NCBI RefSeq assembly: GCF_053078305.1
Contig: NZ_CP166879.1
DNA length: 64,000 nt
Strand: one strand, 5' to 3'
The position numbers and the translations under genes are program-made. The notes beneath the pieces were generated by a model. That model was not told the origin of the DNA and searched no databases. It saw nothing but the letters and a program-made list of their open reading frames with translations. This document shows positions 1,298 to 64,000 of this stretch, one piece after another (the stretch's first letter is position 1; each line of letters starts with the position of its first letter).

Positions 1298-1768
1298 ATG
1301 AAAACACAACGTGGTTATACGCTGATTGAAACGCTGGTCGCGATGCTGATTTTGGTCATGCTAAGTGCAAGTGGACTCTATGGCTGGCAATACTGGCAGC
1401 AGTCGCAACGGCTATGGCAAACCGCCAGCCAGGCGCGAGACTATTTGCTCTATTTACGTGAAGATGCCAACTGGCATAACCGCGACCACAGTATCAGCGT
1501 TATCAGGGAGGGGACGTTATGGTGCCTTGTGAGTTCCGCTGCTGGGGCCAATACCTGTCATGGCAGTTCACCATTGGTCTTTGTGCCACGCTGGCCCGAA
1601 GTCGAAATGAGCGACCTGACACCTTCGCTTGCCTTCTTTGGCCTGCGCAATACCGCATGGGCCGGGCATATTCGCTTCAAAAACACAACGGGCGAGTGGT
1701 GGCTGGTGGTTTCGCCGTGGGGAAGACTCCGGCTTTGTCAGCAAGGAGAAACAGAAGGATGCCTGTAA
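1298..1768 (+). CDS. ppdA: Prepilin peptidase-dependent protein A (type IV pilin-like)
   Basis: ORF in frame of 1280..1768; N-terminus [22 protein letters not shown] is a prepilin-type N-terminal methylation motif; 156 aa from the ATG at 1298. Confidence 0.85.
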
Positions 1769-2322
1769 AAGAGCAAGGTTTTTCTCTGCTGGAAGTGTTG
1801 ATTGCTATGGCGATCAGTAGCGTATTGTTGTTGGGGGCTGCACGCTTTCTGCCTGCGTTACAGCGTGAAAGTTTAACGAGCACCCGTAAGCTGGCACTGG
1901 AAGATGAAATCTGGCTGCGGGTATTTACCGTCGCGAAGCATCTCCAGAGGGCGGGTTATTGTCATGGCATCTGTACCGGCGAAGGGCTGGAAATTGTCGG
2001 ACAGGGTGACTGTGTCATTGTGCAGTGGGATGCGAACAGTAACGGTATCTGGGATCGCGAACCGGTAAAAGAGTCCGACCAGATTGGATTTCGTCTGAAG
2101 GAGCATGTGCTGGAAACGCTACGCGGTGCGACATCCTGTGAAGGTAAGGGCTGGGATAAAGTCACTAATCCGGATGCCATCATTATCGACACTTTTCAGG
2201 TCGTACGTCAGGATGTCAGCGGCTTCTCGCCGGTGTTGACGGTTAATATGCGTGCTGCCAGTAAGTCTGAACCGCAAACCGTGGTGAATGCCAGCTATAG
2301 CGTGACAGGATTCAACCTGTGA
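1759..2322 (+). CDS. ppdB: Prepilin peptidase-dependent protein B
   Basis: ATG at 1759 gives 187 aa starting [27 protein letters not shown] (prepilin-like); the upstream part of ORF 1519..2322 is treated as a spurious extension. Confidence 0.85.
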
Positions 2323-2726
2323 ACCGCGAAAAGGGTGTTTCGTCACTGGCTCTGGTCCTGATGCTGCTAGTTTTGGGTAGCTTGCTATTACAAGGAATGA
2401 GCCAACAGGATCGCAGTTTTGCCTCTCGCGTGAGCATGGAAAGTCAGTCATTGCGCCGCCAGGCCATCGTTCAGTCGGCGCTGGCGTGGGGAAAAATGCA
2501 CTCCTGGCAGACGCAGCCAGCAGTTCAGTGCTTGCAGTACGCTGGAACCGATGCCCGGGTTTGTTTGCGTTTATTGGCAGATAATGAAGCCTTATTGATT
2601 GCCGGTTATGAAGGCGTTTCGTTGTGGCGAGCAGGTGAAGTCATCGATGGAAAAATTGTTTTTTCGCCACGCGGCTGGAGCGATTTTTGTCCGCTGAAAG
2701 AGGGGGCGTTATGTCAGCTTCCCTGA
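2319..2726 (+). CDS. ygdB: Pilin-like protein in the ppd operon
   Basis: 135-aa ORF with GTG start at 2319, hydrophobic N-terminus, and 4-nt overlap with the ppdB stop. Confidence 0.8.
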
Positions 2727-3034
2727 AGAATCAACAAGGCTTTAGCCTGCCGGAGGTAATGTTGGCGATGGTGTTGATGGTGATGATTGTCACTGCGTTA
2801 TCGGGTTTCCAGCGAACATTAATGAACAGTCTTGCCAGCAGAAACCAGTACCAACAGCTCTGGCGGCATGGTTGGCAGCAAACGCAACTGCGCGCGATTT
2901 CGCCACCTACCAACTGGCAGGTCAACCGAATGCAGACATCGCAGGCGGGATGTGTCAGCATCAGCGTTACGCTAGTTTCACCCGGGGGCAGAGCAGGCGA
3001 GATGACCCGCCTGCATTGCCCGAATCGTCAGTAG
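2711..3034 (+). CDS. ppdC: Prepilin peptidase-dependent protein C
   Basis: ATG at 2711 gives 107 aa starting [27 protein letters not shown] (prepilin-like N-terminus). Confidence 0.85.
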
Positions 3035-3046
3035 TCAGGAGCCGCT

Positions 3047-6000
3047 ATGTTAAGGGTCTACCATTCCAATCGTCTGGACGTGCTGGAAGCGTTGATGGAG
3101 TTTATTGTCGAACGCGAACGGCTGGACGATCCTTTCGAACCAGAGATGATTCTGGTGCAAAGTACCGGTATGGCACAGTGGCTGCAAATGACCCTGTCGC
3201 AAAAGTTTGGTATTGCGGCAAACATTGATTTTCCGCTGCCTGCGAGCTTTATCTGGGATATGTTCGTCCGGGTGTTACCGGAGATCCCCAAAGAGAGCGC
3301 CTTTAACAAACAGAGCATGAGCTGGAAACTGATGACTCTGCTGCCGCAATTGCTGGAGCGCGAAGACTTTACCCTGTTGCGGCATTATCTGACTGACGAT
3401 AGCGACAAGCGAAAACTGTTCCAGCTTTCCTCAAAAGCGGCGGACCTGTTTGACCAGTATCTGGTCTATCGCCCGGAGTGGCTGGCACAATGGGAAACAG
3501 GACATTTGGTTGAAGGGCTGGGAGAAGCACAGGCCTGGCAAGCGCCGTTGTGGAAGGCTCTGGTGGAATATACCCATGAACTCGGGCAACCGCGCTGGCA
3601 CCGCGCGAATCTCTATCAGCGCTTTATCGAAACGCTGGAGTCCGCGACGACCTGCCCGCCGGGGTTACCTTCGCGCGTCTTTATATGCGGTATTTCCGCG
3701 TTACCGCCTGTTTATCTCCAGGCGCTCCAGGCGCTGGGTAAACATATTGAAATCCATCTCCTGTTTACCAACCCCTGCCGTTATTACTGGGGCGACATTA
3801 AAGATCCTGCTTATCTGGCGAAACTACTGACTCGCCAGCGCCGACACAGTTTTGAAGATCGCGAATTACCGCTATTTCGCGACAGCGAAAATGCCGGGCA
3901 GCTCTTTAACAGCGATGGTGAACAGGATGTCGGCAACCCGCTGCTGGCCTCATGGGGCAAGCTTGGGCGCGACTACATTTATCTCCTTTCTGACCTGGAG
4001 AGCAGCCAGGAGCTGGACGCCTTTGTCGATGTCACGCCAGATAACCTGCTGCATAACATTCAGTCTGACATTCTGGAACTGGAAAACCGCGCTGTTGCTG
4101 GTGTGAACATCGAAGAGTTTTCCCGTAGCGATAACAAACGCCCGCTTGATCCACTGGATAGCAGTATCACCTTCCACGTTTGCCATAGCCCGCAGCGTGA
4201 AGTTGAAGTTTTGCACGATCGCCTGCTGGCGATGCTGGAGGAAGACCCGACACTTACTCCGCGCGACATCATCGTGATGGTGGCCGACATCGACAGCTAC
4301 AGTCCGTTTATTCAGGCAGTGTTTGGTAGCGCACCTGCGGATCGTTACCTGCCTTACGCCATTTCCGACCGTCGTGCGCGGCAGTCACATCCGGTACTGG
4401 AAGCGTTTATCAGCCTGTTATCACTGCCTGACAGTCGCTTTGTGTCAGAGGATGTGCTGGCGCTGCTGGATGTGCCGGTGCTGGCGGCGCGGTTTGACAT
4501 CACCGAAGAAGGGCTGCGTTATTTACGCCAGTGGGTCAACGAGTCCGGCATTCGTTGGGGCATAGATGACGACAACGTTCGCGAGCTGGAACTCCCCGCC
4601 ACCGGACAACACACCTGGCGATTTGGCCTGACGCGTATGTTGTTGGGCTACGCGATGGAGAGCGCGCAGGGCGAGTGGCAATCGGTTCTACCTTATGATG
4701 AATCGAGCGGCTTAATTGCAGAACTGGTGGGGCATCTGGCTTCACTGCTAATGCAGCTAAACATCTGGCGTCGCGGGCTTGCACAGGAGCGTCCGCTGGA
4801 AGAGTGGTTGCCGGTTTGTCGCGATATGCTCAACGCCTTCTTCCTGCCGGATGCGGAAACCGAAGCGGCGATGACGCTGATCGAACAACAATGGCAGGCG
4901 ATTATCGCCGAAGGTTTAGGTGCGCAGTATGGCGACGCGGTGCCGCTGTCACTATTGCGTGATGAACTGGCACAGCGCCTGGATCAAGAACGTATCAGCC
5001 AGCGTTTTCTCGCCGGACCGGTTAACATTTGTACTCTGATGCCAATGCGTTCAATTCCGTTCAAAGTGGTTTGCCTGCTGGGAATGAACGACGGCGTTTA
5101 TCCACGTCAGCTTGCGCCATTGGGCTTTGACCTGATGAGCCAGAAACCGAAGCGTGGCGACCGTAGCCGTCGCGATGACGACCGCTATCTGTTCCTGGAA
5201 GCGTTAATTTCAGCGCAGCAAAAACTCTATATCAGCTATATCGGGCGTTCCATTCAGGATAACAGTGAACGTTTCCCGTCGGTACTGGTGCAGGAACTGA
5301 TCGACTACATCGGGCAAAGTCATTATCTACCGGGCGATGAAGCGCTCAACTGTGATGAAAGCGAGGCAAGGGTAAAAGCGCATCTTACTTGCCTCCATAC
5401 CCGAATGCCGTTTGATCCACAAAACTATCAGCCAGGCGAACGACAAAGCTATGCTCGTGAATGGCTACCTGCGGCCAGCCAGGCTGGTAAAGCACATTCT
5501 GAATTTGTTCAGCCGCTGCCGTTTACCTTACCGGAAACCGTGCCGCTGGAAACGCTACAACGATTCTGGGCACATCCGGTGCGGGCGTTCTTCCAGATGC
5601 GTTTGCAGGTGAACTTCCGTACTGAAGACAGCGAAATCCCCGACACCGAGCCATTTATTCTGGAAGGACTTAGCCGTTATCAAATCAATCAGCAGTTATT
5701 GAATGCACTGGTTGAGCAGGATGATGCCGAACGCTTGTTCCGCCGCTTCCGGGCGGCAGGGGATTTACCGTATGGCGCTTTTGGTGAAATTTTCTGGGAA
5801 ACACAGTGCCAGGAGATGCAGCAGCTTGCCGACAGAGTCATTGCCTGTCGCCAGCCGGGGCAGAGTATGGAAATTGATCTCGCTTGCAACGGTGTGCAGA
5901 TAACTGGTTGGTTGCCGCAGGTGCAGCCGGATGGCTTGTTGCGCTGGCGTCCCTCTTTATTAAGTGTGGCGCAGGGAATGCAACTTTGGCTGGAACACCT

Positions 6001-6415
6001 TGTCTACTGTGCCAGCGGTGGTAATGGTGAAAGTCGCCTTTTTCTACGCAAAGACGGCGAGTGGCGTTTTCCGCCGCTTGCAGCCGAACAGGCTTTGCAT
6101 TACCTCTCACAACTGATTGAGGGGTATCGTGAAGGGATGTCCGCGCCATTGCTGGTGTTACCTGAAAGTGGCGGCGCGTGGCTAAAAACCTGTTATGACG
6201 CGCAAAACGATGCCATGCTGGATGACGATTCCACGTTGCAAAAAGCCCGTACGAAATTCCTTCAGGCTTACGAAGGCAACATGATGGTGCGTGGCGAAGG
6301 TGATGATATCTGGTATCAAAGGCTCTGGCGGCAATTAACACCAGAGACAATGGAGGCAATCGTTGAACAGTCGCAACGTTTCCTGTTACCGCTGTTTCGC
6401 TTTAATCAGTCATGA
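3047..6415 (+). CDS. recC: Exodeoxyribonuclease V gamma subunit
   Basis: 1122-aa ORF starting MLRVYHSNRLDVLEALMEFIVERE…, recognised as RecC. Confidence 0.95.
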   Translation: MLRVYHSNRLDVLEALMEFIVERERLDDPFEPEMILVQSTGMAQWLQMTLSQKFGIAANIDFPLPASFIWDMFVRVLPEIPKESAFNKQSMSWKLMTLLPQLLEREDFTLLRHYLTDDSDKRKLFQLSSKAADLFDQYLVYRPEWLAQWETGHLVEGLGEAQAWQAPLWKALVEYTHELGQPRWHRANLYQRFIETLESATTCPPGLPSRVFICGISALPPVYLQALQALGKHIEIHLLFTNPCRYYWGDIKDPAYLAKLLTRQRRHSFEDRELPLFRDSENAGQLFNSDGEQDVGNPLLASWGKLGRDYIYLLSDLESSQELDAFVDVTPDNLLHNIQSDILELENRAVAGVNIEEFSRSDNKRPLDPLDSSITFHVCHSPQREVEVLHDRLLAMLEEDPTLTPRDIIVMVADIDSYSPFIQAVFGSAPADRYLPYAISDRRARQSHPVLEAFISLLSLPDSRFVSEDVLALLDVPVLAARFDITEEGLRYLRQWVNESGIRWGIDDDNVRELELPATGQHTWRFGLTRMLLGYAMESAQGEWQSVLPYDESSGLIAELVGHLASLLMQLNIWRRGLAQERPLEEWLPVCRDMLNAFFLPDAETEAAMTLIEQQWQAIIAEGLGAQYGDAVPLSLLRDELAQRLDQERISQRFLAGPVNICTLMPMRSIPFKVVCLLGMNDGVYPRQLAPLGFDLMSQKPKRGDRSRRDDDRYLFLEALISAQQKLYISYIGRSIQDNSERFPSVLVQELIDYIGQSHYLPGDEALNCDESEARVKAHLTCLHTRMPFDPQNYQPGERQSYAREWLPAASQAGKAHSEFVQPLPFTLPETVPLETLQRFWAHPVRAFFQMRLQVNFRTEDSEIPDTEPFILEGLSRYQINQQLLNALVEQDDAERLFRRFRAAGDLPYGAFGEIFWETQCQEMQQLADRVIACRQPGQSMEIDLACNGVQITGWLPQVQPDGLLRWRPSLLSVAQGMQLWLEHLVYCASGGNGESRLFLRKDGEWRFPPLAAEQALHYLSQLIEGYREGMSAPLLVLPESGGAWLKTCYDAQNDAMLDDDSTLQKARTKFLQAYEGNMMVRGEGDDIWYQRLWRQLTPETMEAIVEQSQRFLLPLFRFNQS

Positions 6416-12400: not shown

Positions 12401-13014
12401 TGGAACTTGGCGGTTTTGAAGCGCACTGGGAACCTGTATTAACCGAATGGATCACCGCTATTCTTCAGGCGCCGCTCAATGAAACTGGTGTTAGCCTGAG
12501 TCAACTTTCCGCTCGTAATAAACAGGTGGAGATGGAGTTTTATCTGCCGATTAGTGAACCACTTGTCGCCAGTCAGCTTGATACGTTAATCCGCCAGTTT
12601 GACCCGCTATCAGCAGGCTGCCCGCCGCTGGAGTTCATGCAGGTGCGCGGCATGTTAAAAGGCTTTATCGACCTGGTGTTTCGCCACGAAGGGCGTTATT
12701 ACCTGCTTGACTATAAATCCAACTGGTTGGGTGAAGACAGTTCGGCTTACACCCAACAGGCTATGGCAGCGGCGATGCAGGCACACCGCTATGATCTGCA
12801 ATATCAGCTTTATACCCTGGCGCTGCACCGTTATCTGCGACATCGCATTGCTGATTACGACTATGAGCGCCACTTTGGCGGCGTTATCTATCTGTTCCTG
12901 CGTGGCGTTGATAAAGAACATCCGCAACAAGGGATCTACGCGACCCGACCCAACGCCGAGTTGATTGCCCTGATGGATGAGATGTTTGCCGGTATGACCC
13001 TGGAGGAGGCGTGA
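9472..13014 (+). CDS. recB: Exodeoxyribonuclease V beta subunit (helicase-nuclease)
   Basis: 1180 aa from the ATG at 9472 ([13 protein letters not shown]…), Walker A motif GTGKTFT; start overlaps the ptrA stop by 8 nt. Confidence 0.95.
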
Positions 13015-14840
13015 TGAAATTGCAAAAGCAATTACTGGAAGCTGTGGAGCACAAACAGCTACGCCCGCTGGATGTGCAATTTGCCCTGACCGTGGCGGGA
13101 GATGAACATCCTGCCGTCACCCTCGCGGCGGCACTGTTAAGTCATGATGCCGGAGAGGGACACGTTTGTTTGCCGCTTTCACGACTGGAAAATAACGAGG
13201 CGTCGCATCCGCTGTTGGCGACCTGTGTCAGTGAAATCGGTGAGCTACAAAATTGGGAAGAATGCTTGTTGGCTTCTCAAGCGGTCAGCAGGGGAGATGA
13301 ACCCACGCCGATGATCCTCTGTGGCGATCGTCTTTATTTGAATCGCATGTGGTGTAACGAGCGGACGGTAGCGCGCTTCTTCAATGAGGTGAATCATGCC
13401 ATCGAGGTTGATGAAGCTCTACTGGCGCAAACCCTGGACAAACTTTTTCCAGTAAGCGATGAAATTAACTGGCAAAAAGTTGCAGCGGCAGTGGCGCTGA
13501 CGCGGCGGATCTCGGTGATTTCCGGCGGCCCAGGCACCGGTAAAACGACCACCGTGGCGAAGTTGCTGGCAGCGTTAATTCAAATGGCCGACGGCGAACG
13601 CTGCCGTATCCGTCTGGCTGCACCAACGGGTAAAGCTGCCGCGCGCTTAACCGAATCTCTCGGCAAGGCTTTGCGACAGTTACCGCTGACCGATGAACAA
13701 AAGAAACGCATTCCGGAAGATGCCAGCACTTTGCACCGATTGCTGGGCGCGCAGCCGGGTAGCCAGCGTTTACGTCATCATGCCGGTAACCCGCTGCATC
13801 TTGATGTGCTGGTGGTAGATGAAGCGTCAATGATCGATCTGCCTATGATGTCGAGACTGATCGACGCCTTGCCAGATCATGCGCGAGTGATCTTTCTCGG
13901 CGATCGTGATCAACTGGCCTCGGTTGAGGCTGGGGCTGTGCTGGGCGATATCTGCGCTTATGCCAACGCGGGCTTTACCGCCGAGCGTGCCAGGCAGCTA
14001 AGCCGCCTGACGGGGACTCACGTTCCGGCAGGAACTGGCACAGAAGCGGCATCTTTGCGCGACAGTCTCTGCCTGCTGCAAAAAAGCTATCGTTTCGGCA
14101 GCGATTCTGGCATTGGTCAGTTAGCTGCGGCGATCAACCGTGGTGATAAAACGGCAGTGAAAACCGTTTTTCAGCAGGATTTTACTGATATCGAAAAACG
14201 ACTTTTACAGAGCGGCGAAGATTATATTGCGATGCTTGAGGAAGCTCTTGCGGGTTACGGACGTTATCTGGATCTGCTGCAAGCGCGTGCCGAGCCGGAT
14301 TTAATCATTCAGGCGTTCAATGAGTACCAGCTTTTGTGCGCCCTGCGGGAAGGGCCATTTGGCGTGGCTGGACTGAATGAGCGAATTGAGCAGTTTATGC
14401 AACAGAAGCGCAAAATTCATCGTAATCCGCACTCTCGTTGGTACGAAGGCCGACCGGTGATGATTGCCCGTAATGACAGCGCGCTTGGGTTGTTTAATGG
14501 CGATATCGGTATTGCGCTGGATCGCGGGCAGGGGACGCGCGTCTGGTTTGCGATGCCGGACGGCAATATTAAGTCTGTGCAACCGAGTCGCTTGCCAGAG
14601 CACGAAACTACGTGGGCGATGACGGTACATAAATCGCAGGGATCGGAGTTCGACCATGCGGCGTTGATTTTACCGAGCCAACGCACGCCGGTAGTAACGC
14701 GAGAGCTGGTATACACCGCGGTGACCCGCGCGCGTCGCCGTCTGTCGCTGTATGCCGATGAGCGTATATTAAGTGCGGCAATCGCCACTCGTACTGAGCG
14801 GCGCAGTGGTCTGGCGGCGTTGTTTAGTTCGCGGGAATAA
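13014..14840 (+). CDS. recD: Exodeoxyribonuclease V alpha subunit
   Basis: 608 aa with Walker A motif [10 protein letters not shown]; start overlaps the recB stop (ATGA). Confidence 0.95.
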
Positions 14841-17791: not shown

Positions 17792-17868
<77 letters not shown>

Positions 17869-17900
17869 TCACCGTACTGCTTTATTTCATCAAATTTGAT

Positions 17901-17977
<77 letters not shown>

Positions 17978-18010
17978 TCACCGTACTGCTTTACTTCATC
18001 AAATTTTAAT

Positions 18011-18087
<77 letters not shown>

Positions 18088-63645: not shown

Positions 63646-64000
63646 GAGTTCCCCGCGCTAGCGGGGATAAACCGTAATGAGTCAGGGGAATACCGAATAT
63701 TTTATAGAGTTCCCCGCGCTAGCGGGGATAAACCGAAATTTATCGAGATCGGCAGGGGTTACTGACAGAGTTCCCCGCGCTAGCGGGGATAAACCGGCCG
63801 TTAATCCGGACTGCCAGCGAATAACGCTGAGTTCCCCGCGCTAGCGGGGATAAACCGCAACATATTTAAACGATTTAAGCCAGGCATATGAGTTCCCCGC
63901 GCTAGCGGGGATAAACCGGGATTCATCACGCGGTTATCCGGGGGCCGTTAGAGTTCCCCGCGCTAGCGGGGATAAACCGGTGGTTGCGGGGTTATCGGTG
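63646..64000 (+). CRISPR. Type I-E-like CRISPR array; 6 repeats and 5 complete spacers in the window, array continues beyond the window end
   Basis: 29-nt repeat GAGTTCCCCGCGCTAGCGGGGATAAACCG at 63646, 63707, 63768, 63829, 63890 and 63951, with 32-nt spacers: TAATGAGTCAGGGGAATACCGAATATTTTATA / AAATTTATCGAGATCGGCAGGGGTTACTGACA / GCCGTTAATCCGGACTGCCAGCGAATAACGCT / CAACATATTTAAACGATTTAAGCCAGGCATAT / GGATTCATCACGCGGTTATCCGGGGGCCGTTA; a sixth spacer is cut by the window end. Confidence 0.95.

Follow-up and report, generated by a model that had tools for sequence, protein, structure and literature searches.

The closest described counterparts of the Escherichia coli ppdA-ppdB-ygdB-ppdC operon are the FimU-PilV-PilW-PilX priming complex of the Pseudomonas aeruginosa type IVa pilus (T4aP), the GspH-I-J-K proteins of type II secretion systems (T2SS; PulHIJK in Klebsiella), the comNOPQ genes of Haemophilus influenzae (HI0938-HI0941) and the minor pilin FimT of Legionella pneumophila. 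In the DNA analyzed here, a 64-kb stretch of the E. coli chromosome (64,000 nucleotides of contig NZ_CP166879.1; hereafter, the window, to which all coordinates refer), the operon occupies positions 1298-3034 and precedes recC. The operon is already known as a set of core minor pilins that prime assembly of the PpdD pilus and belong to the competence regulon controlled by Sxy at Sxy-dependent CRP (CRP-S) sites. The locus is ordinary, the annotation of every E. coli genome includes it, and the finding is not new in itself. The evidence assembled below supports this reading with a probability of about 0.87: the four genes encode the core minor pilins of the E. coli T4aP, whose major subunit is PpdD (HcpA), and these proteins prime pilus assembly under Sxy/CRP-S control.

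The priming function and the induction by Sxy are taken from the literature. According to published work, PpdAB-YgdB-PpdC is able to prime PulG pseudopilus assembly in a mutant of pulHIJK (Cisneros 2012, cited in PMC5131608), and type IV pilus assembly of enterohaemorrhagic E. coli (EHEC) is strongly impaired when the genes are deleted (Luna Rico 2019, cited in PMC7248040). Cameron and Redfield considered the four genes orthologous to pulG-HI0941 (comNOPQ) of H. influenzae because both sets adjoin recC (PMC1635313), and the operon is described as Sxy-induced and as the equivalent of comNOPQ (PMC1635313, PMC12616744), which is needed for DNA uptake in Haemophilus (PMC12616744). Sxy induction is attributed in PMC12616744 to Sinha 2009 and to Jaskolska and Gerdes 2015. 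A chassis for assembling pili in E. coli consists of hofBC, hofMNOPQ, ppdAB-ygdB-ppdC and gspO (bioRxiv 10.1101/856302). A preliminary description of the window, made from the sequence alone, had called the function of these genes poorly defined; the published priming, EHEC pilus-assembly and Sxy results have overtaken that statement.

The operon differs from each of these systems in specific respects. In P. aeruginosa, the gene order is U-V-W-X, whereas in E. coli it is A(FimU)-B(PilW)-YgdB(PilX)-C(PilV); the ppd operon encodes no PilY1 or PilE partner, its YgdB is much smaller, and it is detached from other pilus genes, adjoins recC and is under Sxy/CRP-S control. Identity to GspH-I-J-K of E. 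coli and to Klebsiella PulHIJK is negligible outside the N-terminal helix, the large insertion domain of GspK is missing from YgdB, and the ppd operon does not adjoin gspC-M, the T2SS clusters having HIJK genes of their own. The arrangement of comNOPQ is alike: each set has four prepilin-peptidase-dependent genes of similar size that lie directly upstream of recC in the same orientation, both belong to a CRP-S/Sxy regulon, and they are considered orthologous (PMC1635313, PMC12616744). However, sequence similarity between them is below BLAST detection (PMC1635313), PpdA and ComN share 18% identity and differ in disulfide pattern (PMC12616744), and DNA uptake is proven to need comNOPQ, whereas the E. 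coli set has no such established phenotype. L. pneumophila FimT is a DNA-binding minor pilin whose C-terminal tail is flexible and free of Cys, and its gene is usually an orphan; PpdA, in contrast, is operon-encoded, its C-terminus is stapled by an invariant C147-C155 pair, and its DNA binding is a prediction.

The present analysis addressed gene structure, signal motifs, pilin folds, conservation, purifying selection, synteny and the location of the machinery. The four genes are as follows, a slash marking the predicted cleavage site.

1298-1768, + strand: ppdA, ATG start; minor pilin of the GspH/FimU family, 156 aa; leader MKTQRG/YTLIE
1759-2322, + strand: ppdB, ATG start; minor pilin, 187 aa; leader MPVKEQG/FSLLE
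2319-2726, + strand: ygdB, GTG start; DUF2509 pilin-fold protein, 135 aa; leader MNREKG/VSSLA, no Glu5
2711-3034, + strand: ppdC, ATG start; small minor pilin, 107 aa; mature N-terminus FSLPE

The list of open reading frames (ORFs) and the sequence give the same four gene positions, and the RefSeq annotation of NZ_CP062811.1, an E. coli genome 99.3% identical to the window across 63.7 kb, agrees with them base for base. Consecutive genes overlap by 10 nt (ppdA/ppdB), 4 nt (ppdB/ygdB) and 16 nt (ygdB/ppdC), and 12 nt separate the ppdC stop codon from the recC ATG. The names, coordinates and overlaps in the preliminary description were therefore right, as was the placing of the operon directly upstream of recC, which holds at 79/79 loci compared (see below). 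A 2-kb query across the four genes matched 5425/5426 complete E. coli genomes.

The class III signal of PpdA, PpdB and PpdC is canonical (G/[FY][ST]Lx-E5), and all four leaders are short and positively charged with Gly at -1. A hydrophobic segment of about 20 residues directly follows the cleavage site in the sequence and runs into a long N-terminal helix, which spans residues 9-60 in the predicted model of PpdA and 4-60 in that of YgdB. Scores against the N_methyl profile PF07963 (cutoff, 21.2 bits) are 30.0 bits for PpdA, 35.5 for PpdB and 28.6 for PpdC, and the same three proteins exceed the cutoff of TIGR02532. YgdB has no match to the N_methyl hidden Markov model, and its Pfam match is to DUF2509 only. 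All four proteins match their NCBIfam equivalogs (NF007848 for PpdB), and PpdC matches Pfam T2SSppdC besides N_methyl.

For comparison across species, a scan anchored on the conserved RecC N-terminus in one genome per GTDB species gave 80 Enterobacteriaceae loci, and family alignments of 80 sequences each (the window plus 79 species) were built. Gly(-1) is invariant (80/80) in each of the four families. Glu5 is kept in 79/80 PpdA, 80/80 PpdB and 79/80 PpdC sequences, and mature residue 1 is Tyr or Phe in PpdA, Phe in PpdB (80/80) and Phe in PpdC. This conservation of the prepilin motif is far beyond chance. YgdB never has Glu5 among its 80 sequences: position 5 is Ala, Leu, Gly or Met and position 1 is Met, Val, Ala, Leu or Ile, while G-x-S-S-L and the hydrophobic helix are retained. 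The prepilin N-termini reported earlier for all four products accordingly hold in full for PpdA, PpdB and PpdC, and for YgdB as regards Gly(-1) and the helix, but not Glu5 or the N_methyl match. Absence of Glu5 is a known exception of GspK/PilX-type subunits, and YgdB is, as judged from its sequence, a non-canonical prepilin with the GspK/PilX pattern. Cysteine pairs are invariant in all families (two conserved pairs in PpdA, four Cys in PpdB, C81 and C103 in PpdC), as expected of exported, disulfide-bonded pilins.

Assignment of each protein to a pilin class draws on profile and fold comparisons. PpdA fits the GspH/FimU fold, of which the quartet has one member, and YgdB is its one member without Glu5. 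In hhalign comparisons, PpdC aligned with K-12 GspI over 96 columns with a probability of 87%, and the best match of YgdB was the GspK N-terminus; with single K-12 Gsp sequences, however, alignment was mostly confined to the N-terminus. PpdB aligned with K-12 GspJ at the N-terminus only; it matched the GspJ profile TIGR01711 weakly, again just at the N-terminus (E = 2.7e-4), and Thermus thermophilus TTHA1219 also weakly (E = 0.035, residues 4-137). Searches of PDB sequences with YgdB, PpdA, PpdB and PpdC returned N-terminal helix matches only, or none. In a published equivalence table, FimU, PpdA and GspH correspond to one another, as do PilV, PpdC and GspI, PilW, PpdB and GspJ, and PilX, YgdB and GspK (PMC7248040); the PpdC-GspI and YgdB-GspK profile results agree with this table.

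The annotation of NZ_CP062811.1 shows the whole 64-kb window to be free of pilus and secretion machinery, in line with the preliminary description, which had supposed that the products are substrates of a peptidase encoded elsewhere. Such genes are indeed found at other chromosomal sites: K-12 has ppdD-hofB-hofC, hofMNOPQ, gspO and pppA, and NZ_CP062811.1 has pppA. In K-12, gspO (12544-13221 of locus L005) lies inside the cryptic gsp T2SS cluster, which has its own gspHIJK; pppA is at 5544-6353 of locus L006. In NZ_CP062811.1, pppA is part of a complete T2SS-beta cluster (sslE-pppA-gspS2-gspC..L-yghD; locus L087, 811-845 kb), again with its own gspHIJK, and pppA and the PilT-like gene yggR are about 150-180 kb from the ppd operon. 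YggR, a PilT/PilU-family ATPase, could be the retraction motor of the PpdD pilus. Among complete E. coli genomes, ppdD-hofBC is present in 5424/5426, hofMNOPQ in 5425/5426, gspO in 3159/5426 (58%) and pppA in 3640/5426 (67%).

These locations and frequencies bear on the possibility that the quartet is a spare minor-pseudopilin set that natively serves a T2SS (Gsp alpha or beta) and not a type IV pilus. The only prepilin peptidases of the genome sit in T2SS clusters, Pfam names the PpdC family T2SSppdC, and the proteins reportedly can prime assembly of PulG, the Klebsiella T2SS pseudopilin, in a pulHIJK mutant (PMC5131608). Nevertheless, both E. coli T2SS clusters have their own gspH-I-J-K, and the window has no gsp genes, the ppd operon lying neither within nor next to a gspC-M cluster and so not forming part of a T2SS operon. 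Moreover, the ppd operon, ppdD-hofBC and hofMNOPQ are each present in about 100% of genomes, whereas gspO and pppA are each present in about 58-67%; the ppd operon thus co-occurs with the Hof/PpdD system. In the literature, too, the operon is grouped with the T4aP and with the competence regulon (PMC7248040, PMC12616744), and a native role in type II secretion appears highly improbable. The ppd quartet is therefore the set of minor pilins that the Hof/PpdD system lacks, and the Hof/PpdD system is the machinery that the ppd operon lacks.

The gene order thyA-ppdA-ppdB-ygdB-ppdC-recC is found in 79/79 loci that include upstream DNA, and in 79 species all four ORFs are undisrupted and vary little in length. 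Across genera, the four pilin proteins are 42-77% identical, compared with 90-98% for ThyA and 75-93% for RecC; identity to L007, the E. coli representative in GTDB, is 85% for YgdB and 89% for PpdB, compared with 99% for ThyA and 98% for RecC. The ratio of non-synonymous to synonymous substitution rates (dN/dS) is 0.07-0.25 for the pilin genes, even with saturated dS, and 0.01-0.08 for thyA and recC. The non-synonymous rate is 5-10 times higher in the pilin genes (1298-3034) than in the flanking thyA and recC segments (320-1114 and 3047-3646).

Rapid divergence of this kind might be expected if the operon were an evolutionary relic, consisting of unexpressed genes that drift toward pseudogenes and are retained for their position between the essential-like thyA and recC. 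The label 'cryptic', the failure to detect ppdD and hof transcripts in laboratory cultures historically (PMC1635313), the evolution of these proteins several times faster than ThyA and RecC, and a ppdA without a Shine-Dalgarno (SD) sequence are all in keeping with such decay. However, dN/dS is not near 1, frameshifts and stop codons are not frequent, the frames are intact in all 79 species, and Gly(-1) and Glu5 are kept along with every cysteine and a number of motifs; promoter elements are also conserved (see below), and functional assays have been reported (PMC7248040, PMC5131608). The dN/dS values and the invariant residues lead us to reject the relic or pseudogene interpretation, which is extremely improbable. 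Given dN/dS of 0.07-0.25 and intact frames, these are selected genes: all four are under purifying selection and are 'cryptic' in expression only.

Upstream of ppdA, a phylogenetic footprint of 71 aligned thyA-ppdA spacers and RNA folding point to three elements.

1132-1162, + strand: thyA intrinsic terminator, a GC-rich hairpin followed by a U-run, which separates thyA from the ppd operon
1176-1197, + strand: candidate CRP-S site from the footprint, TTCTTCGA-GACATC-TTCCCGAA
1202-1217, + strand: direct repeat TGCAAC-N4-TGCAAC from the footprint, between the CRP-S candidate and ppdA

The terminator folds with -17.9 kcal/mol (z = -4.2), and its hairpin and T-run are kept in the 71-species alignment; a terminator scan did not pick it up, whereas folding did. 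Because this terminator is strong, the ppd operon needs a promoter of its own. The CRP-S candidate emerged from phylogenetic footprinting only. Its cores, at 1179-1183 and 1190-1194, flank a non-conserved 6-bp spacer, and the footprint consensus is TTTT(T/G)CGA, the variable spacer (58 variants in the 71 species) and TTCC(A/T/C). In 47/71 species, the left core reads TTCGG, TGCGA or TTCGA (TGCGA in 15, TTCGA/TTCGG in 32), and 62/71 retain C6; a right core of the form TTCC[A/T/C] is found in 56/71, the right half being without G17. The distance from the candidate to the ppdA ATG is a constant 111-114 nt.

C6 is the hallmark of CRP-S sites (bioRxiv 10.1101/284836; PMC1635313), and the E. coli ppdD promoter is an experimentally validated CRP-S promoter (PMC1635313). 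The layout of the ppdD promoter is TTCTTCGT-N6-TCGCA, 16 nt, CTGCAAC and CGGAATCTGC, the ppdA counterpart being CGGAAGATGC; the ppdA upstream element has the same left half and the same layout. On the basis of the C6 hallmark and of this common layout, 1176-1197 is likely to be the CRP-S site of the ppd operon. Searches of 1115-1297 for strict CRP-S (TGCGA-N6-TCGCA) and canonical CRP sites gave 3-4 mismatches at best, and the top match was inside the thyA terminator.

Each copy of the TGCAAC repeat is exact in 37-38 of the 71 species and one base off in most others, and TGCAAC-N4-TGCAAC has its sole match in the window at this site. A single CTGCAAC occurs in the ppdD promoter at an equal distance from its CRP-S site. 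The repeat could be a -35-like element or a site for a further factor. Its identification as a sigma-54 (-24/-12) promoter or as a CRP site was rejected, as the spacing and the half-site orientation do not fit.

At the start of the operon, ppdB, ygdB, ppdC and recC have recognizable SD sequences, whereas ppdA has none and instead a conserved CA(T/C)ACTGCC-GCC directly precedes its ATG (1286-1297). RNA structure in the ppdA leader (1240-1330) was no better than in shuffled sequences (z = +1.2). An interpretation of CA(T/C)ACT as the -10 box of a leaderless mRNA was not adopted, as the CRP-S-like site would then be centered near -111.

Taken with the published work, these data suggest the following scheme. 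A promoter of the operon's own, located downstream of the thyA terminator, would drive transcription, probably through the candidate CRP-S site at 1176-1197. Since both CRP-cyclic AMP and Sxy (TfoX) would be required at this weak site, the operon would be silent in ordinary culture, and its place would be in the competence/DNA-uptake regulon as the counterpart of Haemophilus comNOPQ. Each product would enter the inner membrane via its N-terminal hydrophobic helix, and cleavage after Gly(-1), presumably also in YgdB, would be by GspO or PppA, prepilin peptidases encoded at other loci. PpdC (GspI/PilV-like), PpdB (GspJ/PilW-like) and YgdB (GspK/PilX-like) might then form a tip complex in which YgdB, having no Glu5, caps the filament and PpdA (GspH/FimU-like) joins the tip to the first PpdD subunits, this order of subunits being the putative one. 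The tip complex would prime filament polymerization by HofB/HofC/HofMNOPQ.

Several observations weigh against this assignment as core minor pilins of the PpdD pilus under Sxy/CRP-S control. Neither gspO nor pppA is universal in E. coli, and as both are accessory, processing is not guaranteed in every strain. The CRP-S candidate in the window has four mismatches to the strict core TGCGA-N6-TCGCA, and a sigma-70 promoter scan found no promoter on the + strand. The sequence and structure signals behind equating PpdB with GspJ and YgdB with GspK are weak, and YgdB, at 135 aa, is far smaller than GspK, at 327 aa.

Conservation within PpdA bears on what the pilus would do. Its GRxR motif at residues 142-145 and an upstream arginine are strongly conserved (G142 in 79/80, R143 in 80/80, R145 in 80/80 and R117 in 77/80 sequences), and the positions of R117 and GRxR match DNA-contacting residues of the minor pilin FimT (PMC8897410; PMC12616744). 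A modelling paper of 2025 hypothesizes DNA binding by E. coli PpdA (PMC12616744). These correspondences raise the possibility that the operon is primarily a DNA-uptake (competence) module, with PpdA at the pilus tip as a DNA receptor of the FimT/ComN kind, and with DNA binding and import, and not adhesion or the mere start of assembly, as its main role. This proposal is tentative, and such a primary role seems rather doubtful.

The four genes as core minor pilins that prime the PpdD pilus might also be linked in expression to the gene that follows them.

3035-3046, + strand: ppdC-recC junction, 12 nt that hold the recC SD sequence AGGAG and into which a terminator would not fit
3047-6415, + strand: recC, encoding the RecBCD gamma subunit; constant downstream neighbour, from the annotation

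The ppdC-recC gap is 7-31 nt in 80/80 sequences and 12 nt in 59/80, with AGGAG/GGGAG conserved, and a terminator scan of the window found no terminator-like site between ppdC and recC. The short gap, the conserved SD sequence and the lack of a terminator make it plausible, from the sequence, that recC is co-transcribed with the ppd operon by read-through from the ppd promoter. The same arrangement next to recC is known in Pasteurellaceae (PMC1635313, PMC12616744). A speculative extension, which we consider unlikely, is that the operon is a DNA-uptake module wired to recombination, in which PpdA is the tip receptor of an Sxy-induced pilus and Sxy/CRP-S induction reads into recC. If so, DNA capture and the supply of RecBCD would be co-regulated, and TGCAAC-N4-TGCAAC and the conserved SD-less start region of ppdA would be additional, undescribed control points.

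Other genes in the window are lgt, thyA, recC-ptrA-recB-recD, argA, amiC, mltA, fuc genes, sdaCB, barA, relA, mazEF, pyrG, eno and the start of a CRISPR array. At the end of the window (63706-63857), CRISPR-like repeats occur with a period of 61 nt and the repeat core GAGTTCCCCGCGCTAGCGGGGATAAACCG; a CRISPR array is annotated at the corresponding place in NZ_CP062811.1, the alignment to which ends at 63674. Between amiC and mltA, the annotation of NZ_CP062811.1 places three tandem tRNA-Met genes on the - strand (approximately 17792-18087), which show as internal repeats when the window is compared with itself.

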